A stretch of 62,449 bases of DNA, from the IMG/VR virus record IMGVR_UViG_3300020442_001526, positions 1-62,449 of that record; one strand, given 5' to 3'. Each line of letters begins with the position of its first letter. Position 1 is the stretch's first letter. The position numbers were made by a program, and so were the translations under genes. Positions 4,653 through 58,580 of the stretch are shown here, in pieces. The stretch is from a virus. Taxonomy: Duplodnaviria; Caudoviricetes. The notes below the pieces were generated by a model. It saw nothing but the letters and a program-made list of their open reading frames with translations. It was not told the origin of the DNA and made no database searches.

Positions 4653-5435
4653 ATGCCAAAATCAGATTTAGATAGAGAAATGTTCAAAACAGCAGGCATG
4701 CAACGTGCCGCTAAAAGAGATGCTATGGGAAAAGAATTTGGCATTGGTAATTTTTATGCTTGGTTGATGGACAAGTATCCTAAATTAACACTAGGCCAGG
4801 TAGAACAAAAAATGCCTAGTTTAGAAAGAGAATACAATCAGGAAAAGACTATGAGAAGAGAACGTCCTGATGAAGTACCTACAGTAAGTCCTTTCAGTGA
4901 TGATGAGAAAGAAGTCAAAAAAGCAAAAGGTATTAAAGAACCTGAAACTTTTGAAAACACAAAGGATCCAGAAAGCAAAGGTGATTGTGAACCATGCAAT
5001 GGCACAGGGTACAAAGACGGTGATATGAAGTCACTTAAGGCTTGTCCTAAATGTGATGGTGATGGTGAAAGTCCAGGATTTGGTGGTACTAAAGCATACG
5101 AAGAATTAAACAGAATGAGAAAACTAGCAGGACTTCCTATTATGGAAGATGATACTGTTACTAAAATAGCAATAGGTCATGTTGATGATGAATCAGACAT
5201 GATGAGAAAAGAACTATACAAGATAGGAAAGTATAGTGTAGAATTATACAAAATGTTAGGTGACCTACCTGACGGAGATTTCCCACACTGGTGGCAAGGC
5301 AAAATTGTTAAAGCAGGAGAATACATTGGTTCTGCTAAACATTACCTAGAAGGTGAACTTTATTCACCGGAAGAAGAGAGTCCATTAGACAAGGAACCTG
5401 AAGACAAAGACGATATAAATCCATCAGGAGTCTAA
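4653..5435 (+). CDS. putative virion protein with DnaJ-type CxxCxGxG Zn finger
   Basis: CEPCNGTG...CPKCDGDG; RMRKLAGL motif. Confidence 0.55.
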   Translation: MPKSDLDREMFKTAGMQRAAKRDAMGKEFGIGNFYAWLMDKYPKLTLGQVEQKMPSLEREYNQEKTMRRERPDEVPTVSPFSDDEKEVKKAKGIKEPETFENTKDPESKGDCEPCNGTGYKDGDMKSLKACPKCDGDGESPGFGGTKAYEELNRMRKLAGLPIMEDDTVTKIAIGHVDDESDMMRKELYKIGKYSVELYKMLGDLPDGDFPHWWQGKIVKAGEYIGSAKHYLEGELYSPEEESPLDKEPEDKDDINPSGV

Positions 5436-5436
5436 A

Positions 5437-6096
5437 ATGCAATTAGACTGGGTAGTCGATTATTCCCAAAATAAACTTACATTAGAGTTAGACAATGTTG
5501 TCTATCAAACTTTTGACGGTGGGCAAAACATTGACAAATATATTGACACTGAATTTGCGTATCGTATTAGACAGTATCCAGATAAACCACACAATTGGAC
5601 ACATGGTAATCAAAAAGGAAATCCCCCTAAAGCAGATTTAGATGAATGGGGAGATGAACTAGACTGGATCTTAGAAAATTTTCCGAGAGTTGGTCAAAAA
5701 CATTTGGTTACAACTTATCGAGAAAGAGACGGTTTTATAGTAGACGATGGAAAAGTTCGAGGCTGTGGTGTAAATAATTTAACAGATTTAATAGCAGTAA
5801 ATAGATTAGGACAACCTGCAAGTGTACAAGAAAAGTGGGATTGGGACGAAATTGCTACCACAGACTGTTACGAAGATATTTCTAGTAAAATGCATGACAT
5901 TGATCCAAATATTAATAAAGCAACTGAAGGCCTAAGTTGGTACAGAAATAAAAAAACTGGTGTAATAGAAAGGGCAGGTACATCGCAGAACTGTCCGTGT
6001 CATGTTTTTCCAAACATCTATCCTCCTGTAGAAATACACCCAGATGAACTCACAGAAGATATAACCAGATATGGTGGGCATTACATCTTACCATAA
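5437..6096 (+). CDS. hypothetical protein
   Basis: 219-aa ORF abutting upstream stop. Confidence 0.7.
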   Translation: MQLDWVVDYSQNKLTLELDNVVYQTFDGGQNIDKYIDTEFAYRIRQYPDKPHNWTHGNQKGNPPKADLDEWGDELDWILENFPRVGQKHLVTTYRERDGFIVDDGKVRGCGVNNLTDLIAVNRLGQPASVQEKWDWDEIATTDCYEDISSKMHDIDPNINKATEGLSWYRNKKTGVIERAGTSQNCPCHVFPNIYPPVEIHPDELTEDITRYGGHYILP

Positions 6097-8218: not shown

Positions 8219-9064
8219 CTATGTATTCCTTACTAATTCTTCTGCCATTTCGCCCCAGAATCTTCCTGCTCTTGGTCCTTTGTTTGCTTTGCCATCTGAT
8301 TCTCCTGGTATTTTTATCCATAAAAAAGCATCACATTTTTCTTCGCCTGTATCACAAGTAGGTGGAGTTCCTAATGCTCTGCCCGGAGGATTACACCAAT
8401 CGTTACCATGTGGCCCATTGCCATTACGACTAGTGTCTATTACAAAGAAGTCATTTGGTCTATGTTCACAAAGTTCTAAACTCCATTTCATACTTTCTGT
8501 ATTAGACCTGTAATTACTTACATTGACTGCAAAACCTCTAACTTTATTGTTAGTAACTTTATTTAGTAATTTACTTGCTTCAACAGGACTAAGCCAATTG
8601 CTGTGTCCTATGTCTATATAAATTAATGCATCACAATTATCTGTTAAAATTTGTAATCCTTCTTTCATTAATGATATACGTGAATCAGCATCTGCATCAG
8701 ACATTTCAACTGTATGTGTCAAACTATCTGGTTCATAAATTAATATAGGTTTGCTTTTGCCTATGCCGTCTGCAAAACTTTTTAAAAAATTTAAATAACT
8801 TTGTCTAGTTTTAGCACCGCCTTTACTGTATTGTCCTATATCCCTGTTAGGCATGTTATATACGACTAATACGGGCAACTGAGGATAGGTTCTACGCAAC
8901 AATCGTTGCAAACTGTAATCAATCTTTTCCATTTCTTTTCCGTTACGTTCGCCGTACCAAAAAGAAACAGGATACTCAAATATCTTACTTGCTAAAGGAA
9001 ATTTTTGCTTGTGGTCTTTTACTCTATCAAAGTCATTGACCCAAAAAGGATAATCAAGACTCAT
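8219..9064 (-). CDS. glycoside hydrolase family 6 (cellulase/endoglucanase-like)
   Basis: YNMPNRD, YEPDSL, YIDIGH, NVSNY, IDTSRNG, WCNPPG, WIKIPGESDG. Confidence 0.9.
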   Translation of the reverse strand: MSLDYPFWVNDFDRVKDHKQKFPLASKIFEYPVSFWYGERNGKEMEKIDYSLQRLLRRTYPQLPVLVVYNMPNRDIGQYSKGGAKTRQSYLNFLKSFADGIGKSKPILIYEPDSLTHTVEMSDADADSRISLMKEGLQILTDNCDALIYIDIGHSNWLSPVEASKLLNKVTNNKVRGFAVNVSNYRSNTESMKWSLELCEHRPNDFFVIDTSRNGNGPHGNDWCNPPGRALGTPPTCDTGEEKCDAFLWIKIPGESDGKANKGPRAGRFWGEMAEELVRNT

Positions 9065-9599
9065 TTTGGATTTTACGCAAGGCTAAATCTGTTTCCAACA
9101 ATCTTAATTGTTTATTTCGTTTTTTCATTGCACGTTGTAATTTCATATCACTTGCATACTCTAAATAAAGTTTTCCTTGCAAATGGTCATACTCGTGCAG
9201 GAAACATCTTGCGTCTATTCCTTCTAACCAATCTTCAACGACTTCTTTGTCAACAGTTTGAAATCTTACTTTTACTTTTTTAGGTCTTGTAACAATAAAA
9301 TATAATAATGGGAAAGTTAAACAACCTTCTTCCATTGCAACTGATTCATCGCTTAATTCTAATATCTCAGGATTGTAAATACCTACATCTTCTCCTGTTG
9401 CAAATGTCATTACAAACATTCTATGATTACTGCCTATTTGGGGAGATGCAAGTCCAATACCAAACCTATCTTTCATAAGTTGTATCATTTGTTTTTCTCT
9501 ATCTTCCCAATCAATATCTTTATCATCAAAAGGATTTACAGTTGCTTCTAAGTGAAGAACTGGAGTTTTTGGTTCTACTAATTTAATATCTACTGACAT
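9054..9599 (-). CDS. def: peptide deformylase
   Basis: GIGLASPQIG, EGCLT, HEYDHLQG. Confidence 0.95.
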   Translation of the reverse strand: MSVDIKLVEPKTPVLHLEATVNPFDDKDIDWEDREKQMIQLMKDRFGIGLASPQIGSNHRMFVMTFATGEDVGIYNPEILELSDESVAMEEGCLTFPLLYFIVTRPKKVKVRFQTVDKEVVEDWLEGIDARCFLHEYDHLQGKLYLEYASDMKLQRAMKKRNKQLRLLETDLALRKIQNES

Positions 9600-10106: not shown

Positions 10107-10385
10107 TTATGCACTGGATCTACAATATGAATCTATTAATGCGTCACCTTTTAGTTCTTCTCCAAAGGTGTGTACATGCTTTCCATTTCTTTGACGTATA
10201 ATTACGCCACTGTTATAAGTTGTGTCTGTGACTGGGCCGTTTACTTCTATTTCTTTTTTGGTAAAGTCTGTTTCGTACCACATAGATGTTAAACTATGAA
10301 TTTGTATACAAGCAACACCTTTTGCCCATTCTTCTGCTTCTAGTAATAGTCTTTGTCTTTCGACTCTATCGTCGTATTGTCCCAT
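10107..10385 (-). CDS. hypothetical protein (MGQYDDRVERQR...)
   Basis: Longer ORF call overlaps tRNA-Thr; ATG 10385 lies 7 nt after a consensus -10 box. Confidence 0.7.
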   Translation of the reverse strand: MGQYDDRVERQRLLLEAEEWAKGVACIQIHSLTSMWYETDFTKKEIEVNGPVTDTTYNSGVIIRQRNGKHVHTFGEELKGDALIDSYCRSSA

Positions 10386-10392
10386 AATGTTT

Positions 10393-10421
10393 ATTATAAT
10401 GAAATTAATAGTCTTTGTCAA
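10393..10421 (-). promoter_or_regulatory. sigma70-type promoter TTGACA-N17-TATAAT
   Basis: Perfect consensus and spacing. Confidence 0.85.
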
Positions 10422-10424
10422 GAA

Positions 10425-10500
10425 TGGAGCCACCTGTCAGATTCGAACTGACGACCTATGGTTTACAAAACCATTGCTCTACCAACTGAGCTAAGGTGGC
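10425..10500 (-). tRNA. tRNA-Thr (TGT)
   Basis: 76-nt cloverleaf GCCACCTTAGCTCAGTTGGTAGAGC...TGT...GTTCGAATC...CCA. Confidence 0.97.
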
Positions 10501-10529
10501 AAATTCTAATACTATTTATTTAAAAAAAC

Positions 10530-10604
<75 letters not shown>

Positions 10605-10610
10605 AAAACT

Positions 10611-10940
10611 TGGCGGGATGGTTTGCAGTTTACACTCATGTCGAGTAATAAATTGTGGACTTGGTGTTGTTTCGCAAACCTGTCCCAGCCCGAGCCTTTT
10701 TTCAGGCCCCTATTCTTTCTACACAAATCGTTTTATAGACGTCGATTAGTCGTCTTGCAAAGTTATGTTATAAGTATTAAAGTGCAGTAAACACCGGCGC
10801 ACCGCGGGAAAAGTTGCACTATTAGTTAATAAGGTACACTTAAGGACTTTACTGGGCACGGTTCAAACTACTCTGTATCGTGGTGTATTTTATTACACTA
10901 TCCCACCTAATATACGAAATACCACTCGTTTATTAACTAT
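10611..10940 (-). ncRNA. unassigned multi-domain structured RNA(s) at the head of the tRNA operon
   Basis: No long ORF; own sigma70 promoter; several stems, an H-type pseudoknot and a final 76-nt CCA-ended unit. Confidence 0.65.
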
Positions 10941-10946
10941 AAAACT

Positions 10947-10974
10947 ATTATACTGATTTTTAGATAAAAGTCAA
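10947..10974 (-). promoter_or_regulatory. sigma70-type promoter TTGACT-N16-TATAAT for the RNA/tRNA cluster
   Basis: Near-consensus; shares TTGACTTTTAT...TATAATAGTTTTAT with the primase promoter. Confidence 0.75.
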
Positions 10975-11110
10975 CCGTTTTTGAAAAATATTTTTTGTGA
11001 TTTAAAACCTAGAGTATTGGGCTAAAACACTACAGCTCGTCTGAGCGAAGCGATGTTTTGCACCGCATTGCAAAAACATTTGCAGATGATAGCATATTTT
11101 TTTGGTTTTG

Positions 11111-11338
11111 TCAACCTTCTGCTTCTTTGAATTTTAAGGATACTAGATATTCTTCTAAATTTTCTACGTCTTTTTCTAATTTTTGTAATGCTTGTTTAGG
11201 ACTAATTCTTTCTATTCTAGCAATTTGTGTAGCAACAAAAATTAAATCATGTCTACCTAAATCAAACTTTTTTAGAATAAGTTGGATATCAGGCTGTTCT
11301 AAATGTGCTTCGTCTATAGATTTATTACTTCTACTCAT
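11111..11338 (-). CDS. hypothetical protein
   Basis: 75 aa, overlaps upstream stop. Confidence 0.65.
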   Translation of the reverse strand: MSRSNKSIDEAHLEQPDIQLILKKFDLGRHDLIFVATQIARIERISPKQALQKLEKDVENLEEYLVSLKFKEAEG

Positions 11339-12080
11339 TTACTATTACCGCTGTTTTTTGTACATGACCCGATATAGGATATTTTATTTCTACATTATGT
11401 AAGTATTCTTTTAACCACTCAACATTATATATCGTAACTAAGTGATTTACAGGCGTTTTACCGAATAAATGATCCAAAAGTAAATCATTATCTACAAAAT
11501 ATTTAAAATCATTTATATCACACATCAAAATATCCTTGTGACTTAAACATTTTTTATTGGGATAATCCAGTACACGTTTTTTTGTAAAATACTCTGCAGA
11601 GTCCTTGTCTACAAATGTTAATCCAATTTGTCCACCAGGCTTACATACACGTTTGATTTCTGCTAAGTCAAATACAAATTGTTCAAATGTTGTATGACTA
11701 TAAACACTATATGCTAAAACATAATCAAAGGTATTATCCTCAAAAGGAAATAATGTGTTTTCTGTTCCTGTAGGATTATACATGTGATTAAATGCATTGT
11801 GGTGAATCCAATTTGCGTCTGGAAAATTTTGTTTACCGTCTTCTAATGATTTTTTGTCTACATCTAAACAATAATAATCACTAGGTTTTATAGATGCTGA
11901 TACGCCATCTTTTAAAAAATTTCCATTATTGCCACCAATATCTAAAATCTTTTTATTTTCCCAAGTAGGATTTTTAAACATTACATTAAAAAAAGGTAGC
12001 CTTGGGTGTCTTGGAAAAAGACTAGACTGCTGAGACCATTCTACATCATTGTTCAATAAATCTTGAACTGAATCGTTCAT
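11331..12080 (-). CDS. class I SAM-dependent methyltransferase
   Basis: ILDIGG, LDVD, FDYVLAYSVYSH, RVCKPGG. Confidence 0.85.
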   Translation of the reverse strand: MNDSVQDLLNNDVEWSQQSSLFPRHPRLPFFNVMFKNPTWENKKILDIGGNNGNFLKDGVSASIKPSDYYCLDVDKKSLEDGKQNFPDANWIHHNAFNHMYNPTGTENTLFPFEDNTFDYVLAYSVYSHTTFEQFVFDLAEIKRVCKPGGQIGLTFVDKDSAEYFTKKRVLDYPNKKCLSHKDILMCDINDFKYFVDNDLLLDHLFGKTPVNHLVTIYNVEWLKEYLHNVEIKYPISGHVQKTAVIVNE

Positions 12081-16174: not shown

Positions 16175-17194
16175 TTACAACGTTTTAGTTATGCTGATGT
16201 CGTTGAGGTTGTTGCAAAACTCGTAAGGACAACGAGTTTCTGTTTTAGGAATTTCCCAATTATCTAATTGCGTTATGTTTCCAAAGTTTCTAGCACCACA
16301 CCAACTGCTTATTACTTCGCCATTCATGTCTATGTTTAAACTGTCAAAACCCAATTCACATTTCATTCCTTTAAATTTATTTAAACCTTCATTGATAATT
16401 TGATGACTTTGAACATACTTTGCAGGAGCATCTTCATACATAAATTCTGTACTCCAAAATCTAGGATGTCTTTGCTCGTCGTCTGGATCGCTGTGTGTTC
16501 GATTTGGATTTGGTAATAATCCTGGTCGTTGCATAATTTTAATTTCTTCAGGAGTATAATTATAATAAGGTTGCTGTTGAAAATGGTTTGCTTCAGGGCC
16601 TAAGTATTTTTTGTACATGGTTTTAATTGTAATGTTAACATCATAAATACTTTGCATTTTACCATCTGTAAACATATTTCGTAAATTATCTGCAACTTTA
16701 CTTAACTCTTCTACACGACCTCCTATACCAGCAATATTAATATCTAATATTAAATTATCTTTTAGTACTTCCACAACATCATATAAATGTTGTTCTTCCA
16801 TTGTTAAAGGATGATATGTTATAACTACACCTGTAAGATAATCTCTGGCTTCTTTCCACCAGTCTACTGTTCTACTGCCATTGGTATAAATTGTAACACT
16901 AGAATTATACATTGCTATACGTTCTATAATTTTTTCAAAATCTGGAATAGTAGTAACTTCGCCACCAAGCAATTCCCAATGCATATATCTATGTTTGTCT
17001 TTATAATGTTTAGATATTTTGTCTACTACATTTAAATATTTGTCTGTAGACATCCAAGGTTTTGATCCATCATGTAAAATTGAAGGGCAATACTCACAAC
17101 TAAAATTACAGGTGTTTCCCATACTCCATTGAATTTGTACTGCTCTATCAGGATCTGTTGTTTGTGGGCCTTTTACCCAAAGTAGTTTAGGCAT
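16175..17194 (-). CDS. radical SAM protein with C-terminal twitch/SPASM-like Cys cluster
   Basis: CNFSCEYC, GGE, TNG, C-terminal C...WC...CPYEFC. Confidence 0.9.
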   Translation of the reverse strand: MPKLLWVKGPQTTDPDRAVQIQWSMGNTCNFSCEYCPSILHDGSKPWMSTDKYLNVVDKISKHYKDKHRYMHWELLGGEVTTIPDFEKIIERIAMYNSSVTIYTNGSRTVDWWKEARDYLTGVVITYHPLTMEEQHLYDVVEVLKDNLILDINIAGIGGRVEELSKVADNLRNMFTDGKMQSIYDVNITIKTMYKKYLGPEANHFQQQPYYNYTPEEIKIMQRPGLLPNPNRTHSDPDDEQRHPRFWSTEFMYEDAPAKYVQSHQIINEGLNKFKGMKCELGFDSLNIDMNGEVISSWCGARNFGNITQLDNWEIPKTETRCPYEFCNNLNDISITKTL

Positions 17195-18904: not shown

Positions 18905-19509
18905 ACGGAATACTCCTTAAATTTTTCAAAATTGATATTCCATACAACTTGTGGTACTTGATAAAAATCAAAAATACCCTCTGGAACAGCAATGCCTTTT
19001 CTTTTCCACCAATTACGTTTTATGTAATCTGTAATTGAATTTGTACTCTTTACATAATTATCTGAGTATGCTTTATTGGCTAATGTAGTACCAAACGTTG
19101 CTTTAAAGTTTTCTTGTTCACTTGCCCACTTTAAATTGTAATATAATAATCCATCGAACTCAGGCATTTCATGTCCGCGACCATAACGAACAAATTTTGT
19201 CATAGGTATATTTTCATTTGGTATTCGTGAAAGTCTAGTCCAAACTCTATAATAACCTTCTTTGTACTCAGGCATATACTCAACGCCTCCTACTGCATAA
19301 ATTTCCTCAGTGGGTATATGCACCATGCAATGATATTTAATTTTGTCTACTTTCATTGCATCAGGTGATGCATTCTGTGTAAATCCTAAACTGCCTGCTA
19401 CATCACAGAACTTTTCTAACATAGGCATCCAATAGTCATCTAATTCGACACAACCTATTTTGCCATCGAAAAAAGTTCTTAAGATTTTTTGATTGTTGCT
19501 ATCATCCAT
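18901..19509 (-). CDS. hypothetical protein, possibly GNAT-like
   Basis: IYAVGGV...YRVWTR pattern; start reassigned to ATG 19509. Confidence 0.45.
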   Translation of the reverse strand: MDDSNNQKILRTFFDGKIGCVELDDYWMPMLEKFCDVAGSLGFTQNASPDAMKVDKIKYHCMVHIPTEEIYAVGGVEYMPEYKEGYYRVWTRLSRIPNENIPMTKFVRYGRGHEMPEFDGLLYYNLKWASEQENFKATFGTTLANKAYSDNYVKSTNSITDYIKRNWWKRKGIAVPEGIFDFYQVPQVVWNINFEKFKEYSV

Positions 19510-20246
19510 CTGCCTACGTCCAACTCGTACCATTTAGTGTTAAAGTTTAATCTTCTTGGTCTATAATGATGATTGTTATGTAAACTTTCACCCCATGTTA
19601 AAAATACTAACCAAGGATTGTTTGTGCTGTTATTTTGCATAGGATCTGTTTCATATGTTAATCCTTTAATAGGCAAATGTCCAAATACATTTACTATTCC
19701 ACTTATTACAACACTTAAAAAACTTGCATTCAAACTTGCAAGTATATATCTACCATCAAACCACCAAACTGTAAATGTTGTAATTAAAAATAAGTTTAGT
19801 AGTATTAATAACGCATAATTTTTGTGGCACCAGATTGCAAACGGATCTAAAGTTTTTTTAATCTTAAAAAGTTCTGTCCTAGCAAATTCGTGATTTTCTT
19901 TATGAAATATCCAACCAAAGAAAGCATAAAATAAACCCTTAGTTGGTGTATGTACGTCTCCGTCTTTGTCTGTGTGTGCATGGTGACTTCTATTGTGTAA
20001 TAATGTCCAAGTCACCGGCGAGCCTTGTGCTCCTTGGCAACCTAAATATAAAAGTAATTTGCGTATAGGTTCCCAAGTTTTAAAACTGTTATGTGCATGT
20101 AATCTATGAAAGCCAACACTTATTCCATATCCACTATATAATAATGTAAAAAATGCTGTAGCACACCATAATTGTAAACTGCCAAAAGCCATAGACCATG
20201 CTAGACTTAATCCAGCAATTGGTAGAAATAATAAGTAAAACAACAT
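19479..20246 (-). CDS. membrane acyl-CoA/acyl-lipid delta-9-type desaturase
   Basis: His boxes HRLHAH, HNRSHH, HNNHH; TAATG coupling with upstream gene. Confidence 0.9.
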   Translation of the reverse strand: MLFYLLFLPIAGLSLAWSMAFGSLQLWCATAFFTLLYSGYGISVGFHRLHAHNSFKTWEPIRKLLLYLGCQGAQGSPVTWTLLHNRSHHAHTDKDGDVHTPTKGLFYAFFGWIFHKENHEFARTELFKIKKTLDPFAIWCHKNYALLILLNLFLITTFTVWWFDGRYILASLNASFLSVVISGIVNVFGHLPIKGLTYETDPMQNNSTNNPWLVFLTWGESLHNNHHYRPRRLNFNTKWYELDVGRWMIATIKKS

Positions 20247-21070
20247 TATTTCTTCAATCCGTCTATGACCCAACCACTAACATCTATTTCTGTCCAGTGT
20301 TGACTGTTGTTTGTTGCTTTCCAATATCTATGATGATTATTATGCAACATCTCTCCCCAGGTCAAAATTGCACCTAGTCTATTATTCACACTATTGTCTG
20401 GAGTTTCATAATTTCTATAGCCAAACCAACTCATGTGACTTAGTGCTGTTACTAAACTTGTGTTCATTAATGTTGCCCATATACCAAACCAAACACCATA
20501 TAATGCAACTTGCCAACCAAATAGTAACCAAACCAAACCAACTGTTCCATAGTTTATTACTATATGATAATCATTTAAAAATGTATAATACTTGTCATTT
20601 ACAAAGTTACGTCTGATATATGTAACTAAAACACGTCTGTCTATGTGTTTATCAAAATATTCTTGTTCTTTATGCCATGTTAAAAAAGCATGCCAAAATC
20701 CTTTTAAAGGACTATGTGGATCATCTTCTCTATCACTATTCTTATGATGTCCTCTTTCATGAATCATAACCCAAGGGAAAATACTTCCATAGCCATTAAA
20801 CACACTAAAGGTAGTCATGATTCGTTCTCTCCATTTGGGCATTTCAAATGCAGAATGTCCCCAATACCTATGCAATCCTATTGCCATGCCAATACAGCCA
20901 AATAAGAAGTATGTAAATAATCCTAACCATAAGTAATTCCAATCTCCATTAAAAGCCATAATCGGCAGAATACACACACCGACTATTTGTATAGGAAGTG
21001 TGTAAAGCCAAAAGTTCGCTTTTGCTTTATCTTTAAAAAAGTTTGTTAAGGAAGTCAAAATTTTGCTCAT
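20246..21070 (-). CDS. membrane acyl-CoA/acyl-lipid delta-9-type desaturase
   Basis: His boxes HRYWGH, HERGHH, HNNHH; DPHSP. Confidence 0.9.
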   Translation of the reverse strand: MSKILTSLTNFFKDKAKANFWLYTLPIQIVGVCILPIMAFNGDWNYLWLGLFTYFLFGCIGMAIGLHRYWGHSAFEMPKWRERIMTTFSVFNGYGSIFPWVMIHERGHHKNSDREDDPHSPLKGFWHAFLTWHKEQEYFDKHIDRRVLVTYIRRNFVNDKYYTFLNDYHIVINYGTVGLVWLLFGWQVALYGVWFGIWATLMNTSLVTALSHMSWFGYRNYETPDNSVNNRLGAILTWGEMLHNNHHRYWKATNNSQHWTEIDVSGWVIDGLKK

Positions 21071-23426: not shown

Positions 23427-23912
23427 TTACATTCCTGAGGAGCCAGGTTGCTGTACTGACTTAACATAACTTAGGTATGCTTGTTTCATCTTGTTAAGTG
23501 GAGTTGTTTCTAAACTCATACCATCGGCTCTTGCAACATTAGTTTCCCAACTATCATAATCTAATGGGCTACCATCTCCTCGAACAAGAACTCCCTTAGC
23601 ATTCTTTTTAACATCGTTATCAGCAACTTCTTTTGCACGACCATCATCTACTGTAGGTTCGTATTGTGCAACTTCACCCGGTGACCTTTCTGAATCTATA
23701 GCACGTTCGGCACTACTTGTAGAATTTTTGTTATAGTCAGGTGAATCGTATGCAACTTCTTGTCCTGCAACACCTGGTGATGCTGTTGCTAAACTTCCGA
23801 TTGCTCCTATTGTAGCCATTGCTTTACCTAGTTTACCTAATTTCTTTTCTGCTAGAAGTTCAGCAATCAATTGCTGTTCTTCAATTAAGTCTATAAGTTC
23901 TCTCATTTCCAT
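23427..23912 (-). CDS. putative virion protein
   Basis: MEMRELIDLIEE leader, hydrophobic Ala/Gly segment, late promoter at 23942-23949. Confidence 0.55.
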   Translation of the reverse strand: MEMRELIDLIEEQQLIAELLAEKKLGKLGKAMATIGAIGSLATASPGVAGQEVAYDSPDYNKNSTSSAERAIDSERSPGEVAQYEPTVDDGRAKEVADNDVKKNAKGVLVRGDGSPLDYDSWETNVARADGMSLETTPLNKMKQAYLSYVKSVQQPGSSGM

Positions 23913-38748: not shown

Positions 38749-40437
38749 CTACTTTTTATTACGTCCTGACTTCATGTTGGCACACCAGTGATACATTTTT
38801 GACTTCTCACCACTGCTGTCTTTTGCTTTTTTGCGTAGACTTGTTACTGAACCTTTACAACTTGCACCTGCACGTTTTACTCTGCCTGGACGACTTTTAC
38901 CTTTCTTTTTGCCGTCAGCAAAATTTTCTATAATCTCTGCTGGAATTACATCTCTGCCAACACGTTTTGCTTGATACACTCTGTGAAAACCATCAAGTAT
39001 TGTTTTGCCATCTACATCTAACAGTATTGGTTCATCTAAATCAACACCTACATCTGGATCAACATCTATTACTCTACTAAAACGGTCATCATGTGCTTCG
39101 TCATCTAAGTCTGCTACTTTGACTTTGATTAGTTTGGTCTTTTTGCCTTTGATATAATCTTTAACAGCAGGATTTAGATTTCTTTCATCTAATTGTTCCA
39201 GTTCATCTATAAATGGTTGTGGGTCCATATCCTGATTTTCAAACTCATCTATAAAGTTTCTCAACTCCATTTGGTATGCTTTCTTTAAAATTTCAGGATC
39301 TTCGTTGCCAGTAAAATTACTAAGACCTTTATGAACTCTATTCATATTGTCATCAAAACCATGCTCTTCTTCTCTGTCGTGGGTCATATAGTCCCAAACA
39401 TCTTTGAGCATTTTAACACCATTTATATTTACATACTCTCTTTTTATATAAGTGCCTGGAAAATTAATAACTTCTGCTTCTGACATTTTAGATTTTAGTA
39501 AATCTTTAAAATAGTTTTCCTGCATTACTGCTCTGTCACTTGTTTTATCTTTGAATACATCCATTACTTTTTCTATGTCTGCGTCAACTATAATTGCAGG
39601 AACACGTTTAATACCTAGTATATTAGCGGCATCATATCTATGATGACCATTTATCAAGTATCCTCTTCTATCTAGAATAAAAGGTCTGTCTGCTTTTTTA
39701 AGAAATACGTCTTCTGCTTTTTTACTTAATCCATCTACACGTTGAGTTTGTACATGTTTAATTTTATCTATACTGATTGTACCTTCTTTGTATTTTAAAT
39801 CTGATTTATCTAAATGTTTTCTTCTAATTTGTGGCAATTGGTTTCTATCAAAATGTTTATCACTAACACTTCTACTATAACTTTCTTCTATGCCTTTTCT
39901 TAAACGTATAACACCACAGGCAAGTCTTTCTCCTGCATTACCTGTTTTTAAACTTTCTTCATCTCCACCCAAACCTAAGTCATCTTCGTCTGCATGTATT
40001 ACCATTGCTCTGCCTACAACACTTCGGTCACCACTTAAATCAACACGTCTTGCAACAATTTTAAAACTAGCAATGCCTAATTCATTTGCAACAATATTGC
40101 CTAAGTCGCCTACATGCCCAATTGCTAAATCTCCATGGTCAACTCCGTCTGGATTGTAATGACCTCCAGCACTATCACAACCATCACTAAGGTCGCCAAA
40201 CTCATGAATATGTATTCCGTGTTTGCCAGGTGTAAGTCCTTTTATTTGTCCTCTGATTATTGTAGGTTTGTTTGGTTCTTGTTTTAAAACAATACCGCCT
40301 GATATATCACCTTCAACATGTTCTAATTGAACTACTGCTTTTATTATTTCTTCTGCTTCACTGATTGTGTTTAAAGACTCGCACTGGCAACTTTTTTCTT
40401 TTGTTCTAGGGCATTTTTTAAAATCTGTTATTCGCAT
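38749..40437 (-). CDS. sodC: Cu/Zn superoxide dismutase fused to two ParB/sulfiredoxin-like domains and a basic C-terminal module
   Basis: [37 protein letters not shown]; INGHHR and LDGFHR. Confidence 0.85.
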
Positions 40438-43400
40438 TATCTAATTGCATATTGTGGCGATGCTTTCATTTGGTCATCATTCCACGAAATGCCTCCTGTA
40501 ACTTCTACTTTGCCTTGAGCAATAGCCTTAATCATTTCATCTCTATTGTTAATAATATAATAAGACCTTGTATTACTGTTTATGAATAATATATTTTCTA
40601 CATTGTCTTCTATGTTATAACTTTCATATGCCAGACCTGTGTAGTAACTCCATAGTCTTTGCATAGATAATGTACCATCTTCATTAGGCATTTTAGCAAC
40701 AATTTTTTCAAAATCAGGCACACGTTTCCAACCAGGCATTATACCTTTTATAACACCTAATAATAATTCTGTGGTTTTCTTTTTGTCGCTATATGGCTCT
40801 AAAACTTCATCATTTAAAAATTGAATACCTTTTGCATTAAAATTATATCTACTTGCTTGTTTACCAGCGGCAGATGTGTATTTCATAAATCCTGGTTCTT
40901 TAGCGGCTTCAGATGGATTTTTATTTGGATTTAGTTCTCCAATTTTAGGATAAATCTTTTTGATACCTTTTTCCAAAGGTCCCCAACCATTCGTTCCCGA
41001 ACTTATACCTTTACTGTTTAATCTAGCACCATATATGGAATTACCTACTTTTCCGCTTTTCAATCTTTTAAAGCCACTGCCTTTTAATTCGTACATTACT
41101 CCATCAATTTCTAAGTCACCATGTGATTCTGCTTTTTTAGCCGGGTTACCAAATATTGCAAGTCCCACTTCTGCAGGACCATAGTTACCACTTGTAGTAC
41201 CACCTGGAATAAATTCAAAAATATCACCTTTGAAATAACTATCAAAAATGTCTAATACTTCTTTATCTAAATTTCGATTGATATGGTCATCTATTTTACC
41301 TTCTTTAGCGGATACCAATGCCTTAGTATCAATCAGTTCACCGTTCATTGCATGGGTTAATAATTTACCTAATGCAACTAAAGATACTTTTTCATCTTCT
41401 TCAATTCCGCTGATAATACTGTTTAACTTGTCTGCTATACTGTTTTGTACTTTATTAAAATTAGATGCTTCATATTTGTCATCTGCAATACCTTCTGCTT
41501 TTTTAACTAATGCAACTACCTGTTTCTTTAACTGAGTTTTTGCTTTACGCATATCTATTTCACGTTGCTCGCCACCCATTTTAATTGCTGTGTCTATATC
41601 AACTTCTCTAGCAGTATAACTCATAAGTTCTTTTTCTAATTGGTCTATTTTGAGTTCTAATTTTTTAAGTTCTACATTTAATGTATTACATTTATCCTTT
41701 AATTTTGGTTGCAAACATGCCTGCTGTATATCTCTTTGCAATATAGCATGCCTAACAACTTGAGTTCTAAAATCTGAAACAAGTTGAGCAGGTGCTTCTG
41801 ATAAAATACTTTCATTGAGTTTTACTTTAGATTTTACTTCTTCAGGTAATGCACTAACATAAAATCTTAAAATATTTCTAGCACATGCATCATCACCTGC
41901 TTCTGCTCTCAGATTTCTAAATGAATCCAACATAGCAGGAATAGGAATAGCCTGAAATGCCAACATTTGTTTTTTAAGATCACCTACAGGAAAATGGTCT
42001 GCTAGTAATTTATTGATAATTTCAATTTTATTAAAATCATTTACACTTTCTTTCGCCATCTTTGTTGCTGTTGCATACATAACTGCTTTAGCATCTTTAC
42101 CATAACGTTTTTCAAAATCACCTTTGTTTTTCTTCATGCCTTTAACATATTTTTCCTTATCTTTCTTTTCATCTTTTGTTAAAGGGCGTTCTAATACTTT
42201 AGAGTTTTCTAATATTTGTATTTGTTCTTCTAAAGATAATTTGTCAAACTTATCAAATACACTTTCTCTGGAAAGCATACTGACTCTGTCACGTTCTGCT
42301 CTTTGTTGTTGATTTGCATAAAATTGTCTGCCTCTTGCTAAGTGGCCTTGAAAATCATTTGGTTCTTCACCTGCTAATTTTTCTTTCATCATGCTTTGTA
42401 AAACAGCCTTTTTGAAATCTTCATCATTGTCTGGATTTATAAGAAAATCTACCAATTTGTTTACGTCGGGTCTCAATATATAATTTTGCATACCCGAATT
42501 CATCATCCTTTCAAAATCAATATATTTGGATCTGACTTTTTCGTAATCTGCTTCTGTGGTTGTATTGGATCCTGATTGATTATTTGATGAGGGTTTACTA
42601 TACAGGCTACTGACATCGTCGCCATCACTTCCGTCTGCATTCTTTCTAAAATAGTTTCCACCACTTACATTGTAACTCTTTTTGATGTAATCGTATGCCA
42701 TCTTGACTGCGGCGGCCCATCTTTCTGTGCCTATTGCTTTTGGATCTTTTGGACGCCAGTTGTGGTCACTATCGTATTGGTCGTAAACTCTTTTTAGTAA
42801 GTTTACACCTTGGTCATTTACTCCACGTTCTATTTTTAAATAGTCTGCTAAATTAGTCCAATTTGTTTTATCAGCAACATCAGCCGATGCGGCACCTTCC
42901 ATTCCTTCAACACCACCTGCTCTAATTAAACTTTCTACACTATTATGTTCTTTTGCAAGTTGTTTTTCAAGTGCTTTGGCTTTTTTGCTTAATTCAGGAT
43001 TATTGGCATGCCAAGCCGCTGATGCACTAAATTCAAAAGGTTCTCCATATGGGCCATTAATATCTTCTCTAGGAAGTATAGGATCATCTCCTAACCCTTT
43101 CATACCCTCTCTGCCATCACCGTTTTCTTCTGTGAATTTAACACCCACTTCTTGTAATGCATCTTTGATGGTTTTTCCTTGACCAAATACTGCATTAATA
43201 TTTGAAAATTTTGCTTTAAGTGTTTCAAAATCTGTCCTATAAATACTATCAAACTTTCTTTTAATAACTGTGGCTTTAGATATTCTCCAACTGGTAGGAT
43301 TTTTTTGCCTATAAGGTTCGGCAAGAACTTTTTCAGCCTCCTGCATCATAAAATAATGAGATGTTGGTATCAGTATAGCACCGTCATATTGAGATACATA

Positions 43401-46400
43401 GTTGCTTCTAGACCATGAAAAATATTCTTTTACATCATATTGTCCTAAGTCACCATCTTTTAATTTCTGTATTACTTCATTATTGATTAAAATATCACCA
43501 CCAAATGAAAAACCAGGAACTTCTGCTAAATGACTCGCCCCATGTTTTTTCATAAATGTTTTTTGTTTTTTATGCAAAACTTTTTTCTGAGCAATATCAT
43601 CTGCTTGACTTGAAAAACCAACACTTTGTGAAAGTTTATCAAACCCTGTTAAAAATTGTTTAATTGCTGATACTCTGTCTTTGATAAGTTCTGGTAATCC
43701 ACCTATTTTATAAAATTTTGAACCGTGTCTATCTATATTTCTATAATAAGCATCAAATGATCCTCTAAGATAATTTTGAGTAATATCTTTTAATCTGCTT
43801 GCCATACTGCCGTCATATGGATCGTCATTATCCATTTCTCCTCTAACAATTTGATCTAACAAATTATTGATATTTGCTCTAGTTCTACGTTCAAGCCCAA
43901 AATATTCATACCCATCTGCTCTGTTTTCATGATCTGTACCTTTTAAATCAGGGAGTAGTTCATCTATGTTATCTACGTAGGCATCCAAACTGTTTGCTTG
44001 AATTAATTCGTCCCATAATTTTGCAATTTTTCTTAACATGTCAACATATTGTCCCATGTTATCTTGCTTGATTCTATCCAACTCATCCCAACGAAGCCTC
44101 ATGTTTTGCATCATTTTGCTGAGAGAATTTTCAATATAATTATCATCACCAGTTCTATCAGGGTTATGACCTTTTCCAACTGGGTGATTCCATTCTGGGT
44201 ACTTGCTTAAATAAGTTTTAAGTTTTTCAAATTCTTTTTTAATAACTGGATGCCCAGGTATAAAACTAAAAGCATTTTCTCTATTTGCAATTATTTGATA
44301 AAAATCTTTATATTCTCTAGTAACAGTTCTGCCTTTTAACTCTTCTAATTCTCTTGTTACTTGGTTGTCTTCTTGATCCATCCCTTTTGCTTTTGCAATT
44401 ACTTGTGCTAATTCCTCAAGTTTTTTTGAATCTTTAAAATCATCACTGTGAACAAAATTCCACATGCCTTTTATTATTGCTTCTGTATCTGGGCCTGATA
44501 AAAATTCTGGTGCTTGTATTATTTCTTTTTTAAACAATCTGTCTACACCATTCTTTAATCTACTAATTTTTAATTTAGGTTCTAGTCTACTACTATCCCT
44601 TGAGTTTCCAAAATGTAATGCATCTTTATTTTGAAGAATTAATTTACTTAACTCGTCTGAGGTCAATTTAAATCTAGGAAGTGTTTTTCTTAAAGCACCT
44701 ATTAATCTAACTGATACAGGTTTTCTGTTTTGATTTTGATTCAAATCATATCCTGCTTGTCCAATTGCTACAGACAATCTATCTTGAGCATTTTTCAAAC
44801 TTTGTTTTGCCCGTTCGCTAGGTGCTGTCCTCTCTGGTTCTAAATAACCTCTAAGTGGCTCTTGCTCTTCTAATGCTTCTCCCATCCAACTTGGATCTCT
44901 ACCAGTGTCCTTTTTAAATTGTGCAATACTTTGTTTCCATTTTTTATCTGCATCAGGTTGACTTAATTTTTCATATTCGTTGATATAATGAAACGCCGCA
45001 TTCAGTTTATCCATAGTGTCTAAGTAATGGTCTTTACCAAACATGTCTTTTAATGCATCAATTAAAGGATCATCAAGTCTTTCATCTTTTCCTCTTTCAA
45101 TTGTATCAGGATCAAGTTCATCTATTTTTCTTAAAATCCTAAACAAAGCATTTGCATAATCTTTAGAATATAATTTGTCACTGGCTGAGGCATTTAATGT
45201 TGTTGCATATCTAATAACTGCCTTAGTTGCTGTCTCAAATTCTCTGTGATAATCATCACCTCCACCTATTCTAAATTCTATAAGTTGATTGTTTGTGTCC
45301 CTATCATTTTGATCTTTAAAATTAATTGAACTAAATTTGTCTCTACTAATACCTTTAGATAAAATCTTTTCTATATCTTTGATATTTTTGACATTATCAG
45401 GATTTGATTTAAGTTCTGCGGCTCTTTTTTGCAATTGATCCATTTGGCTTTTAGCATAACTGTTTCTTGCTCTACCAAACGTGCTTAACAGATATTTGTC
45501 GCCTAATAAAACAGCAAGTTTGACAGGGTTAATTTCTTCTCTTTCTTCGCTGTCAATACTCATAGTAACATGTAAACCAGTTGAACTGTTTGTTTCCACA
45601 CCCTCATTATCAAAAAATTCAAATAATGATTTCATTTCTTCCAACATTGCTTTTGGTGTTTTGTATACCGGAGAAATAATTTCTGCTCCAGTGCCGCCAC
45701 TTGCTTCAATACTACTATCTGTTTCTACACGCCAAAAACTATTATTAGAACCATAATTGCTGTGATAATCACCATATTCTACATCTGTAAATTTAGAGTT
45801 TTTGTCTGCCCATCTTTCAATAATTTCAGAAACTTCTCGAACTCCGCCTCCTGAGCTAGGATTAGTTAAATAAATATCAAATTCATACAAACAACTATGC
45901 CAACTTCCATATTCTGAGTTAGCCCAATGGTCCATATCGTAGTCGTCTCTCGCAACCTCGACTGCTCTATCCATTGCTTCACCGCTATCTCTGATTTCGT
46001 CAGCAAGGTATTCTCTAAATTCATCTAGCAATTCTTCTTCAACATATTGACGACCCCAGTTCAAAAAATCCCAGTCTTCGTACTCATCATGTTGATCTTC
46101 TGGTAAATCATCTAATATTCTTTCTTTGTAATCTTCTATGTCATCTTCGCTGATTTCGTCTTCTATATATGAATTAAGGTAGTGTTCGTCTTCTTCTCTT
46201 TCGGATACCATTTCCCAAATAATATCACTTTCATCTTCTGATGCTTTATCTAAGATAAATTCTTCGTATGCATCTTCTATATTTTGAACACCACTACTAC
46301 CTTCTTGGTCACGAACAAAATCTTCAATGTCATACCAGTTGTATTCGTACAACCAATCTTCATCTTCGTCATCTGGGTAAATATTATCCCAAACTGTTTC

Positions 46401-47018
46401 TGCTTCAAATCCACATTTGATTGCTGAGTTTAATGCTGAAGTGGCTATTTCTTTTTTGTTGAAATTTATTTCGAATATTGCTTCTTCGCCTTGTTCACGT
46501 AATTTGAATTTTCTAGAAAGTTTCTTTAATTTCTTTTTAATCTTGTTTGCTTTGGCTAATTTTAATTTTGAAGATGACGATTTATTTAATTTTCCTAGTT
46601 TACTTTCTTCTACATCTACATATACTTCATCTTGAGGATCTACTAAAGTGTATTCACCTTTTGGGTCTTGTACTACAACTTTATCTGGGTTTGGGTTGTC
46701 TCCTACTTTGCTGACAACTTTACCTAAGACTTCTCCTTTTTCATCTTTGTATTCTGAGTCTACTTCTATTTCACCTGCTTTGATAGGAGTAAATTTTGGT
46801 TGTTCTTGTTCTGGCTCTTTAACATCTAGTCCAGGTGTAGTTGTAGGACTGCCTAAATCTTTTTTGGGTGGAGTTTTTTTGTTTACAGTAGGACTTTTTA
46901 CAGCATTTGCTTTAGCATTTGAACCCGTTTGTTGTTGTGATGTAGGCGTACTTGCGCCTGGCTTCATACCATACTCTGTTAAAACAGACTCTAATGTTCT
47001 AACGTCTTTAAATTTCAT
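40437..47018 (-). CDS. 2193-aa modular protein with amidoligase (COOH-NH2 ligase) domain and C-terminal PD-(D/E)XK-like domain
   Basis: GFEAE, VETDSSI, AEIISP, STGLHVT, SINF, IEFR; GPAE...GDLEIDG..YELKG. Confidence 0.75.
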
Positions 47019-55219: not shown

Positions 55220-56193
55220 AACATTTTTGCCTGTACTTGAATCTTTATTTTATTATCTGTTGCATATTTAATTATGCTATTCACTGTGAGCAATCTACCA
55301 TAATGCTCAACAGCATCAGCGGCGTCTTTGATATTGTCTTTCCAGGGAGGGAAACTAACTTCCCAACCTAGTTCAATCGCTTTATCAATTAAGTCCTTGC
55401 CTGCATCATCTCTGTCAGGACATAATATAACACGTTTATTTAACTTGTCAATAAGATGTGCTTGTTCTGATGTAACACCATTACCTAACACACTAATACC
55501 ATCCACAAGTATAGCATCAAAGACGCCTTCTGTTACAATAACAAAATCTCTGTCATTGTTTACAAATCTATCCATATTAAACACATAACCACTTTGCATG
55601 TTTAAAAGATATTTTGCTGTTTCTTTATTAGGTGGATTTACATGTCTACCTGTCCAGCCAACTAACTTATTGTTGTATAGGAACGGAACAACTAGTCTAG
55701 CATTATACATGCTATCACCAAAATGCATCAATGGGTATTTCCCAAATAGTCCACGTTCTATTGCATAATCTTTTACTTTATGACCATCTGGTAAATTTTC
55801 TACCAAATTACAATCTTCTGGTAATTGTACTTGTTTAAATTCTGCCGCACTATAAACATAATCATCAACATCATCTATCTCTAATTCTTCTCCGTATTTC
55901 ATTAAATTTAAAACTACAGAGTGAATATCTTTTGCACCTACACCAAGTGCTTCTGCAAGTGCTTTATATTTCTGTCCTAGTCTAGGACTTGGTGACCAAC
56001 CTGTTGTAAAATTACAATTAAAACAATGATAACTTATTTTACTATTAGACTGTATAACACCACCACGTTTACGTTTATCACTACACATGGGACAATTAAA
56101 AGTAGTCCAACCGCTAGGAGTTTTGCCACTGTTTATAGGCAAATTATCTAGCAATAATCGGTGTACTTGGTCAACTAATTCATGATGATGCAT
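55216..56193 (-). CDS. DNA primase (T4 gp61-like)
   Basis: Zn finger CPMC...CFNC; TOPRIM EGVFD, PDRD.AG, KD. Confidence 0.92.
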   Translation of the reverse strand: MHHHELVDQVHRLLLDNLPINSGKTPSGWTTFNCPMCSDKRKRGGVIQSNSKISYHCFNCNFTTGWSPSPRLGQKYKALAEALGVGAKDIHSVVLNLMKYGEELEIDDVDDYVYSAAEFKQVQLPEDCNLVENLPDGHKVKDYAIERGLFGKYPLMHFGDSMYNARLVVPFLYNNKLVGWTGRHVNPPNKETAKYLLNMQSGYVFNMDRFVNNDRDFVIVTEGVFDAILVDGISVLGNGVTSEQAHLIDKLNKRVILCPDRDDAGKDLIDKAIELGWEVSFPPWKDNIKDAADAVEHYGRLLTVNSIIKYATDNKIKIQVQAKML

Positions 56194-56199
56194 AAAACT

Positions 56200-56227
56200 A
56201 TTATAGCATCTTGGACATAAAAGTCAA
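56200..56227 (-). promoter_or_regulatory. sigma70-type promoter TTGACT-N16-TATAAT, ATG 6 nt downstream
   Basis: Near-consensus; no room for an RBS. Confidence 0.75.
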
Positions 56228-57058
56228 CTAGTTTCTGAGTAATACTTTATCTACAGACCCTGATGTTTTATCGAACTTTACTCTAAGCCAATTAGTATTA
56301 ATAACAAAATTAAAAGGATCTATTCCATTATAAGATGTATATGGAACTGCTGGTAATCCAGCATCTCCTTGTATATTAATATCATACCAATCTGATTCTT
56401 GTGTAGGTGTTGATTCTAATGCACTACCCTGCATAGTAATATTACCTACAAAATCTGTCATATAAAATGCTACAGTATGTCTACTGTGCCTAAAGTTCTT
56501 ATCCTGATTTCCGTACATTGCAGATGAAACAAATGTATTTGCAGGATCACCTAATTCTGTATTGCCTGTTTGCGTAAAAGTTGTAGAACTTTGTGATGCA
56601 ATAGGTTCGTATTCTAAACTACTTCGGACTTCTAAATCTGTGATTATTCTATCATTCTGGTTTGCATACAAAGGATTTTGCGATACTCCACTATCAGAAC
56701 TTTCTGTTATTGAAATATGATAAAATCCAGGATTTAAATCAGTTAAATCTCCTACACTTAAATCTAGTCTTGCTTCACCATTTGTTCCACTATTAACTAG
56801 ACTTAAAGGTTTAAAAACTACCCTTCTGCTTGTATTAGGATTTATAATACTAGCATAAAGTGTTTTAGAACTTAGATTTTGTAAAACTCTATCTCTATTT
56901 CTAATATAAAAGTTTAATTGATTGGTTAATCCTTTATGCACTACTAATTTTGTTTGATTCATAGGTCTATTATCCACGTTTATTCCGTCCGCACTAAGAA
57001 CTAAATCTACGGACTGATTTCCTAAAATATATAATGTATGTGCTGTTCCACTTGACAT
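56228..57058 (-). CDS. putative baseplate/tail structural protein
   Basis: Beta-rich; VHKG..NQL.F..RNRD, WLRVKF, G.VDKVL.R; late promoter at 57082-57089. Confidence 0.55.
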   Translation of the reverse strand: MSSGTAHTLYILGNQSVDLVLSADGINVDNRPMNQTKLVVHKGLTNQLNFYIRNRDRVLQNLSSKTLYASIINPNTSRRVVFKPLSLVNSGTNGEARLDLSVGDLTDLNPGFYHISITESSDSGVSQNPLYANQNDRIITDLEVRSSLEYEPIASQSSTTFTQTGNTELGDPANTFVSSAMYGNQDKNFRHSRHTVAFYMTDFVGNITMQGSALESTPTQESDWYDINIQGDAGLPAVPYTSYNGIDPFNFVINTNWLRVKFDKTSGSVDKVLLRN

Positions 57059-58336: not shown

Positions 58337-58580
58337 CGAAAAGTATGCTCCATTTCATTAATTTTTCTTTCTTTTCTTCCATTCTATCTGCAATTTGTTC
58401 ATCAGTAACTAAACCACTCATTTTCATAATCTCAATCATGGTCATTACATCACCAATTTCATCTTGAAGATTACGCAAATATTTTGTTTTGCCTTTACTA
58501 CGAATCATTTTACTACAGGCTTGAATCAACTCGCCACACTCTTCCATAGTAATGACTAACATTTCTTCGCGTTTTTTCAT
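58320..58580 (-). CDS. MazG-like NTP pyrophosphohydrolase
   Basis: EECGELIQA.SK...DEIGDV. Confidence 0.8.
   Translation of the reverse strand: MKKREEMLVITMEECGELIQACSKMIRSKGKTKYLRNLQDEIGDVMTMIEIMKMSGLVTDEQIADRMEEKKEKLMKWSILFDDEHE

Follow-up and report, generated by a model that had tools for sequence, protein, structure and literature searches.

The locus analysed here raises the question of whether a 117-nt segment lying between a near-consensus promoter and a pair of tRNA genes in an uncultured phage encodes a functional RNA and, if so, of what kind. The window, that is, the whole stretch of DNA analysed, comprises the 62,449 bases of an IMG/VR virus record with an estimated completeness of ~21%; the proteins that its phage has in common with marine T4-like myoviruses (of cyanobacteria, SAR11 and OM43) are only ~40% identical. 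The minus strand carries all genes around 10823-10939, including both tRNA genes, and between the tRNA-Glu gene and an ORF of 75 aa there are 506 nt of non-coding DNA (10605-11110; Table 1). A preliminary description had proposed that 10823-10939 holds a multi-junction RNA domain that begins at a promoter +1 and is closed by a perfect 10-bp stem. The placement of the promoter (TTGACT-16-TATAAT) agrees with this start: the promoter ends ~7 nt before the stem and the predicted +1 (~10940/10939) is the first base of the stem, which puts the beginning of the domain, hereafter module A, at about +1. The stem is also as described, TAGTTAATAA (10823-10832) and TTATTAACTA (10930-10939) forming an exact inverted repeat. 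The strand required correction, as the RNA is that of the minus strand, to which the helices listed earlier do belong. Read in this orientation, the unit in the window is a promoter-proximal precursor comprising module A, two further modules (B and C), tRNA-Glu and tRNA-Thr, in that order. Additional near-consensus sigma-70 promoters are located on the minus strand at 56192-56248, 10393-10421 and 11086-11114; the first of these is a 57-nt stretch 75% alike to the region of the RNA promoter (10939-10994), a likeness that suggests a shared early-promoter cassette.

Table 1. Positions of the features of the module A locus within the window.
Feature	Position	Strand	Description
75-aa ORF	11111..11338	-	directly upstream of the RNA; conserved syntenic neighbour
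Sigma-70-type promoter	10947..10974	-	TTGACT (10974-10969), 16-nt spacer, TATAAT (10952-10947); 11/12 matches
Module A (RNA domain, 117 nt)	10823..10939	-	expanded family member; covariance model R1 and alignments A3, A4
P1 5' strand UAGUUAAUAA	10930..10939	-	partner of 10823-10832
Invariant core, 5' half	10906..10928	-	CGAG-UGGUAU-UUCG (P2 hairpin, D-arm-like), UAUAUU, AGG; near-invariant in 52 variants
Apical insert, lineage-specific	10846..10905	-	UGGG/CCCA helix, AUA junction, two hairpins, bulge
Insert hairpin GUGUA-AUAAAA-UACAC	10883-10898	-	covariation
Insert hairpin CACG...CGUG	10857-10882	-	covariation
GUAAAGU bulge of insert	10846-10852	-	
Invariant core, 3' half	10833..10845	-	CCU-UAA-GUGUAC-C
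P1 3' strand UUAUUAACUA	10823..10832	-	partner of 10930-10939
Module B	10782..10819	-	hairpin GUGCA...UGCAC enclosing UUUUCCC...; conserved in L003
Module C (~100 nt)	10611..10713	-	one small hairpin plus a long, irregular one with GG/CC closure; tRNA-Glu begins a few nt further on
tRNA-Glu (UUC)	10530..10604	-	downstream of module A, co-oriented
tRNA-Thr (UGU)	10425..10500	-	downstream of module A, co-oriented

The folding energy of the single sequence does not set module A apart. The minimum free energy (MFE) of the minus-strand RNA (10939 to 10823) is -23.0 kcal/mol (z -0.75), with 44/200 shuffles equally good. Energy being no better than that of shuffled sequence, it gives no support to the fold, and support comes from comparison.

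Homologues were recruited along several routes. The neighbouring methyltransferase-like protein, used as bait, led to a contig (L003) in which that protein is 74% identical. Between promoter and tRNA-Glu (451 nt), L003 and the window are 92% identical, compared with 78% in the adjacent coding DNA, the promoter of the RNA is kept, and the two sequences differ by indels of 1, 3 and 5 nt. L003 also differs at 5184-5560, where an additional ORF of ~125 aa, equipped with its own promoter, sits between the promoter of the RNA and the 75-aa gene; the window lacks this ORF. A first scan for related loci with the 75-aa ORF as bait gave no match. Scanning viral contigs for 15-mers returned 55 loci, among which only L009 (the L003 contig again) and L020 were real. 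In L020 the 117-nt domain stands alone, directly before tRNA-Glu; its closing stem is another one (GAGGUGC/GCACCUC), and each of the two inner hairpins shows compensatory changes. When metagenome contigs were scanned with a two-block pattern, 36 loci emerged, 28 of them homologues and 8 chance matches, as confirmed by the second of two covariance models (R1, built from 19 homologues, and R2, with a membership cut-off of >=42 bits). R1 scores the window at 142.9 bits (E 2.8e-32), with module A as its sole match there, and found a minimal copy, 86-87 nt by both models, in a 340-kb, 91%-complete relative. A first scan with core words gave at least 119 viral loci, 47 of the 119 listed being R2 members, and a second gave 17 loci. 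In the sets scored, R2 accepted 38/100, 26/97 and 31/48 loci, and the separation is wide, with members at 42-121 bits and everything else at <=17.5 bits. Altogether, the motif occurs in at least 98 loci representing 52 distinct variants (alignment A4) from marine viral and metagenome contigs, and module A of the window carries the consensus pattern and is itself a row of A4. Because the homologues were recruited with core patterns, the apparent invariance of the core is partly a matter of ascertainment; each half of the core stayed constant when a scan required only the other half.

On this comparative evidence, module A belongs to a family of small structured RNAs, so far undescribed, that uncultured marine tailed phages encode. 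Its members follow a fixed order: P1 (7-14 bp, free in sequence), one linker nucleotide, CGAR-UGGUAU-UUCG, UAWAYU, RRG, an apical insert, CYY, UARGUGUACY and P1'. The near-invariant core amounts to ~45 nt and the family core fold to ~60 nt, including an RRG/CYY helix of 3-4 bp. The apical site, in turn, holds anything from 5 to ~80 nt, and the whole insert segment of the window is replaced by other sequence in other classes. In the smallest members (~60 nt) the apex is GGG-UNNAU-CCC, and in the minimal copy of the 340-kb relative a small capped helix takes the place of both inner hairpins. The UGGG/CCCA helix, the two hairpins and the GUAAAGU bulge of the window all lie inside this insert, and it is because of this large two-hairpin insert that the window copy looked like a multi-junction domain. 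The structured RNA of the preliminary description is therefore real, but its multi-junction part is a lineage-specific insert; the conserved, presumably functional core is the ~60-nt fold common to the window and its much smaller relatives.

Covariation supports this fold throughout, with the reservation that cell counts overstate the number of independent events because many homologues are closely related. Applied to 19 homologues, RNAalifold retains 33 pairs with 99.7% of the cells paired and 12 pairs changed on both sides; the observed score was reached by 0/500 shuffles, and slid controls fell to 28-52% and 35-55% paired. Likewise, 0/500 shuffles reached the score of the 52 variants. In these, 8/8 P1 pairs covary, a position showing as many as six types of pair, and the closing stem has been fully turned over, being replaced several times while still paired. 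The RRG/CYY helix covaries as well (one pair is GC in 33 variants and AU in 19, the next GC in 51 and AU in 1, and L170 has GAG/CUC), whereas its fourth pair is mostly U.U (U-A in 7, G-C in 1). Both hairpins of the window-class insert covary, with double changes at two pairs of the GTGTA/TACAC helix and at one pair of the CACG/CGTG helix. P2 varies on one side only (G.U 40, A-U 11).

Not all helices proposed earlier fared as well. ACGAG/TTCGT survives in its CGAR/UUCG part, with one-sided changes only, and not in the rest. TGGG/CCCA is invariant in the window class and has TAGG/CCTA in its place in another class. An AGGT/ACCT helix is not supported: AGG pairs instead with CCT at 10843-10845 (AU to GC in 3/18 distinct rows) and ACCT is ACCG in L020. 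The alternative pairing of GTGGT with ACCAC can form, but falls partly in a segment absent from the minimal family members. Nevertheless, with covariation present in the homologues and helices P1, P5, P3 and P4 established by it, the reading of 10823-10939 as a structured RNA is confirmed.

The same data bear on the strand and on whether an RNA is involved at all. Pairs of the G.U type occur on the tRNA strand only (P2 G.U in 40/52, U.G of helix H3 in 48/52), so the fold is specific to this strand. A plus-strand RNA was rejected despite its lower z (-2.19), since the minus strand carries the genes, the promoter and the tRNAs and is the only one that the G.U pairs fit. Coding was also rejected: the only mini-ORF in the core, a GUG frame of 10-11 codons, is broken in L073 and L083, and the indels are not multiples of three. 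If there were no functional RNA, the segment would have to be a DNA-level element (an operator, an origin, or a homing or recombination site) or be kept by plain synteny, a most improbable explanation that would fit the unexceptional single-sequence fold and the close kinship of many homologues. It is largely refuted by covariation: P1 has been replaced completely several times with its pairing kept, the G.U pairs are strand-specific, RNA-library contigs lie on the region (see below), and the core is essentially unchanged where the upstream 75-aa protein is down to 35-50% identity. Both the core and the stretch from promoter to tRNA are under strong selection.

Within the core, which hardly varies, three pairing models are all possible. 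In the first, which fits the alignment, the P2 hairpin would be joined by H3 (GUAWAY/GUGUAC), with an A.G at one position in 32/52 variants and a change from U.G to C-G in 4. The second also fits and would retain P2 with a pseudoknot between its loop GGUA and the UACY next to P1', a pairing that 100% of the variants could form (GC 29, GU 22, AU 1). In the window, GUGUAC could accordingly pair with GUAUAU (H3) or UACC with GGUA of the P2 loop. The third, a modelled fold that likewise fits, would dispense with P2 and extend P1 by GGUAU/GUACY; it is the MFE structure of several minimal members. Several further ideas about the core were rejected. Among possible pairings with rRNA or tRNA, the best is a 9-nt antisense match to position 2168 of the E. 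coli 23S rRNA, which may not be the host's; as 32/300 shuffles do equally well, the match is not significant. Reading the GAR of CGAR as a 'specifier' codon for Glu does not hold in ~9/52 variants (GUG, GGC, GGG, CAA), and the apical 5-nt loop was rejected as an anticodon because the same site holds 5-80 nt. P1 plus a U-tract makes a convincing intrinsic terminator only in L120/L193, and none is called in the window. Finally, in the 337-nt MFE the 3' end of module C makes a long-range contact with module A, but classes that have both modules do not keep it.

The family is almost certainly real and new to the libraries searched. As the preliminary description held, module A fits no known riboswitch or ribozyme. 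At gathering score, Rfam 15 recognizes only two tRNAs and, elsewhere, a glutamine riboswitch in the whole window; at E<=10, it places nothing on 10823-10939 within 10400-11400, nor on the motif in 12 diverse family members. Partial likenesses to the hairpin-ribozyme loop B, to pistol and to the purine riboswitch, as well as of module C to a tmRNA 5' end, have no Rfam backing and their topologies differ. ARAGORN and RF00005 call the flanking tRNAs only and not module A. A blastn search with two family members found nothing at E<=1 in 50,697 cultured phage records, and R2 found no member in three Kyanoviridae genomes and two large IMG/VR records (best 11.5 bits). Across prokaryotes (GTDB, one genome for each of 185,579 species), one exact core pattern gave 0 matches and a looser one 6, none with the 3' half or an R2 score. 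The glutamine riboswitch (RF01739, 24203-24327, minus strand; 50.4 bits against a gathering score of 35) occupies the gap upstream of a 161-aa ORF (23427-23912), just downstream of the gene for the ribonucleotide reductase small subunit.

No description of the motif was found in the literature, in which one catalogue derived from IMG/VR reports 8,495 structured-RNA candidates of DNA viruses (Fremin and Bhatt, 2023; PMC10690425). These candidates share with module A both the data source and the kind of object, and the catalogue might already list the motif; its text contains no tRNA-Glu-linked motif and the part of its supplements that is searchable does not contain the two contig identifiers looked for.

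The genomic context of the family is dominated by tRNA-Glu. A tRNA-Glu(UUC) gene follows on the same strand in 39/52 variants, being the first tRNA in 35 of those and the second, after tRNA-Thr or tRNA-Tyr, in 4, while the other tRNAs of the clusters vary. In 20 variants it starts <=30 nt from the core, past a short U-rich spacer. For 12/52 variants there is no tRNA in the flank examined, and in one the only tRNA is a tRNA-Arg at a distance of 518 nt, with an ORF and a second promoter in between. What lies downstream thus differs by variant and may be tRNAs, other RNA modules or small ORFs, the latter mostly hydrophobic in the class with a 41-nt insert. In L170/L180, the sequence after the RNA starts like tRNA-Glu without an ARAGORN call and may be a disrupted tRNA-Glu gene. 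Upstream, 18/52 variants have a near-consensus promoter that stops 14-22 nt short of the linker and 3 more have one that stops ~50 nt short of it, and several promoter-less classes have a common AAGUUUU|G 5' flank. The minimal copy of the 340-kb relative is a free-standing gene, in that it has its own promoter (TTGACT/TATAAT) and a second promoter follows immediately after, and L120 combines a 14-bp P1 with a subsequent U-run. A homologue of the 75-aa ORF, 35-70% identical, lies directly upstream of the RNA in 21/52 variants. It was considered as an annotated RNA-binding protein and rejected for want of any Pfam, PHROG or Atlas assignment; the ORF could encode a partner or regulator of the RNA, or its 3' end could simply hold the promoter.

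This linkage to tRNA-Glu, which the family data establish, makes it conceivable, though rather doubtful, that module A is a cis-acting leader element of the tRNA-Glu transcription unit that acts on the transcript or its polymerase. Possible roles would include 5' protection of the precursor, a guide or chaperone for tRNA-Glu folding or RNase P, or a modifier of the polymerase similar to HK022 put. The frequency and proximity of tRNA-Glu (39/52, within 30 nt of the core in 20), the start of the RNA at or near the +1 of strong promoters in 18/52, its invariable co-orientation with what follows, and the retention of the unit of 75-aa gene, RNA and tRNA-Glu across deep divergence all argue for such a role. 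However, the 12 variants without a tRNA in the flank and the one with a distant tRNA-Arg do not fit it, and 100-230 nt of other structured RNA precede tRNA-Glu in the window and in 14 other variants. Moreover, mere protection or insulation needs no ~45 invariant nucleotides, and an antiterminator would have no object, since no terminator-like site was found in 10300-11500.

Public sequence libraries offer a glimpse of expression. Parts of the stretch occur in 20 runs from 13 studies, all marine, estuarine or seawater-type, and 6 of these runs, from three studies, are RNA libraries. In four RNA runs, short contigs (180-300 nt, 3-4 differences) lie on 10585-10920, that is, on modules A to C, with variable ends (10884, 10902, 10920) and no cover over 10200-10404 or 10938-11400. 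They are a weak sign of transcription, because such contigs give neither transcript ends nor strand and RNA libraries can hold DNA.

The reading that we favour, tentatively and at somewhat less than an even chance, is that module A is a discrete, stable small RNA that is cut from a tRNA precursor and acts via its invariant core. An excised stable RNA is proposed because the closing helix is arbitrary, the core is under extreme purifying selection and the apex is tolerant, and because some copies have their own promoter or U-run while most head a tRNA-Glu operon; from this we infer its processing, stability, action in trans and partner. Module A would fold on its own, and tRNA-processing nucleases would release it from the precursor, with RNase P cutting at the 5' end of the next tRNA and, where the module is not at +1, a cut within the conserved AAGUUUU|G flank. 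The released RNA, sealed by P1, would persist as a stable small RNA and act in trans, with the core offering a platform for specific binding; the most likely partner would be a protein or an RNA connected with tRNA-Glu biology. The real covarying fold, the strong selection, the free-standing copies and the variable downstream content are in line with a discrete RNA gene, for which two stable RNAs in the tRNA cluster of T4 set a precedent. On the other hand, the promoter is clearly at P1 in 18/52 variants only, so that many copies are perhaps part of a longer transcript, and the RNA-library contigs, which can contain DNA, define no discrete species. As to a role in trans, the tight linkage to tRNA-Glu fits a cis role at least equally well.

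Ribozymes and riboswitch aptamers, too, typically have an invariant core of this size, and module A could be a new small self-cleaving ribozyme or riboswitch-like aptamer, with the core as active site or pocket and P1 and the apex as variable scaffold. We consider this unlikely. The architecture is similar indeed, with its free closing helix, invariant junction nucleotides, insertion-tolerant apex and possible pseudoknot, as is the size of the minimal members, only ~60 nt. Self-cleaving ribozymes, namely HDV-like theta ribozymes and hammerheads, are found next to phage tRNAs and provide a precedent. Against this, Rfam yields no ribozyme or riboswitch match at E<=10, no cleavage-site signature is identifiable, and RNase P would still be needed for the tRNA 5' end because the spacer length varies. 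Nor is there an expression platform: downstream of P1 come either 4-10 nt and a tRNA or small unrelated ORFs, and the downstream genes have no common function.

The likeness to tRNA itself deserves attention. Module A and tRNAs have in common an end-to-end closing helix, a D-arm-like hairpin with a GG loop and a place among tRNA genes. It is therefore imaginable, if slightly less probable than a ribozyme or aptamer, that the RNA is a degenerate, T-armless tRNA-like molecule that arose from a tRNA gene and is processed by RNase P into a mimic or decoy. P1 would then correspond to the acceptor stem, CGAR-UGGUAU-UUCG to the D arm and UACY to a T-loop substitute pairing with the GG of the D loop, and the target would be a tRNA-binding enzyme or a tRNA-targeting host defence. 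P2 is a 4-bp stem with a GG loop and has AGUGGU in common with the D arm of the neighbouring tRNA-Glu; the recurrent ...UUUU|G flank of copies with no adjacent promoter resembles the leader/+1 junction of tRNA-Glu; and an A is often found 3' of P1. Yet neither ARAGORN nor the Rfam tRNA model makes a call, and unlike tRNAs, module A has no T arm, no canonical anticodon arm (5 bp with a 7-nt loop, compared with an apical loop of 5 nt to 80 nt), no encoded CCA and no common acceptor identity elements that could be seen, while P1 ranges from 7 to 14 bp.

A bolder proposal cuts across these alternatives: the ~45-nt core might be the active centre of a new functional RNA class dedicated to tRNA-Glu, to which we give a low probability, like that of the ribozyme or aptamer. 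Such a class could take the form of a small ribozyme, a sensor or a T-armless mimic placed before the phage tRNA-Glu, and could control its maturation or shield tRNA-Glu, or translation, against a host response that targets tRNA-Glu; lineage-specific add-ons would then find a free docking point in the apical site.

Module A is not the only structured element of the leader. Because two further conserved structured modules follow it, the locus is an array of undescribed RNAs and then tRNAs. Elements resembling module B, with different outer stems, come after the family RNA in the L116/L133 and L070/L071 classes. For module C, which recurs in at least 11 distinct sequences from several classes, an alifold of 11 sequences gives 26 pairs, 10 of them changed on both sides, and Rfam gives no match at E<=10 (10400-11400). 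A further conserved hairpin region lies at ~10720-10780. Elsewhere in the window, the minus strand carries auxiliary genes for a glycosyl hydrolase of family 6 (8219-9064), a peptide deformylase (9054-9599), a radical SAM protein (16175-17194), a fatty-acid desaturase (19479-20273) and ThyX (58577-59281), and an ORF of 2,193 aa (40437-47018) has a weak amidoligase match.

Stable RNAs in phage tRNA clusters have been known since T4 and are still unexplained. To these, the present analysis adds a compact ~60-nt family with very clean comparative support that is abundant in ocean viral data and tied specifically to tRNA-Glu. Being small, with a modular apex and a strong promoter, it lends itself readily to tests in vitro; if the core is catalytic, binds a ligand or mimics a tRNA, it would constitute a new RNA class, and the family could reveal a use of tRNA operons by phages beyond codon supply.

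Among known systems, GOLLD and ROOL are structured RNAs of unknown function that are often encoded by phages beside tRNA genes. They are ornate RNAs of 500-800 nt from other hosts, whereas the core of module A is ~60 nt and has no Rfam match at E<=10. The put RNA of HK022 is a small (~70 nt) phage RNA with a conserved sequence right after an early-type promoter. Module A is similarly promoter-proximal and conserved, but many of its copies have no adjacent promoter. A parallel in setting is provided by rnaC and rnaD (species 1 and 2) of T4, two stable RNAs of 139 and 119 nt and of unknown function located in the tRNA cluster (T4 annotation). Searched with R2, the T4 tRNA region (L102) gives nothing at E<=0.1, and the folds differ, with rnaC keeping a T-arm-like hairpin that module A does not have. 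The T4 RNAs, encoded by a large myovirus, and module A alike are small RNAs of a tRNA cluster that share the orientation of its tRNAs, with the T4 RNAs at the downstream end of their cluster and module A at the head of its own.
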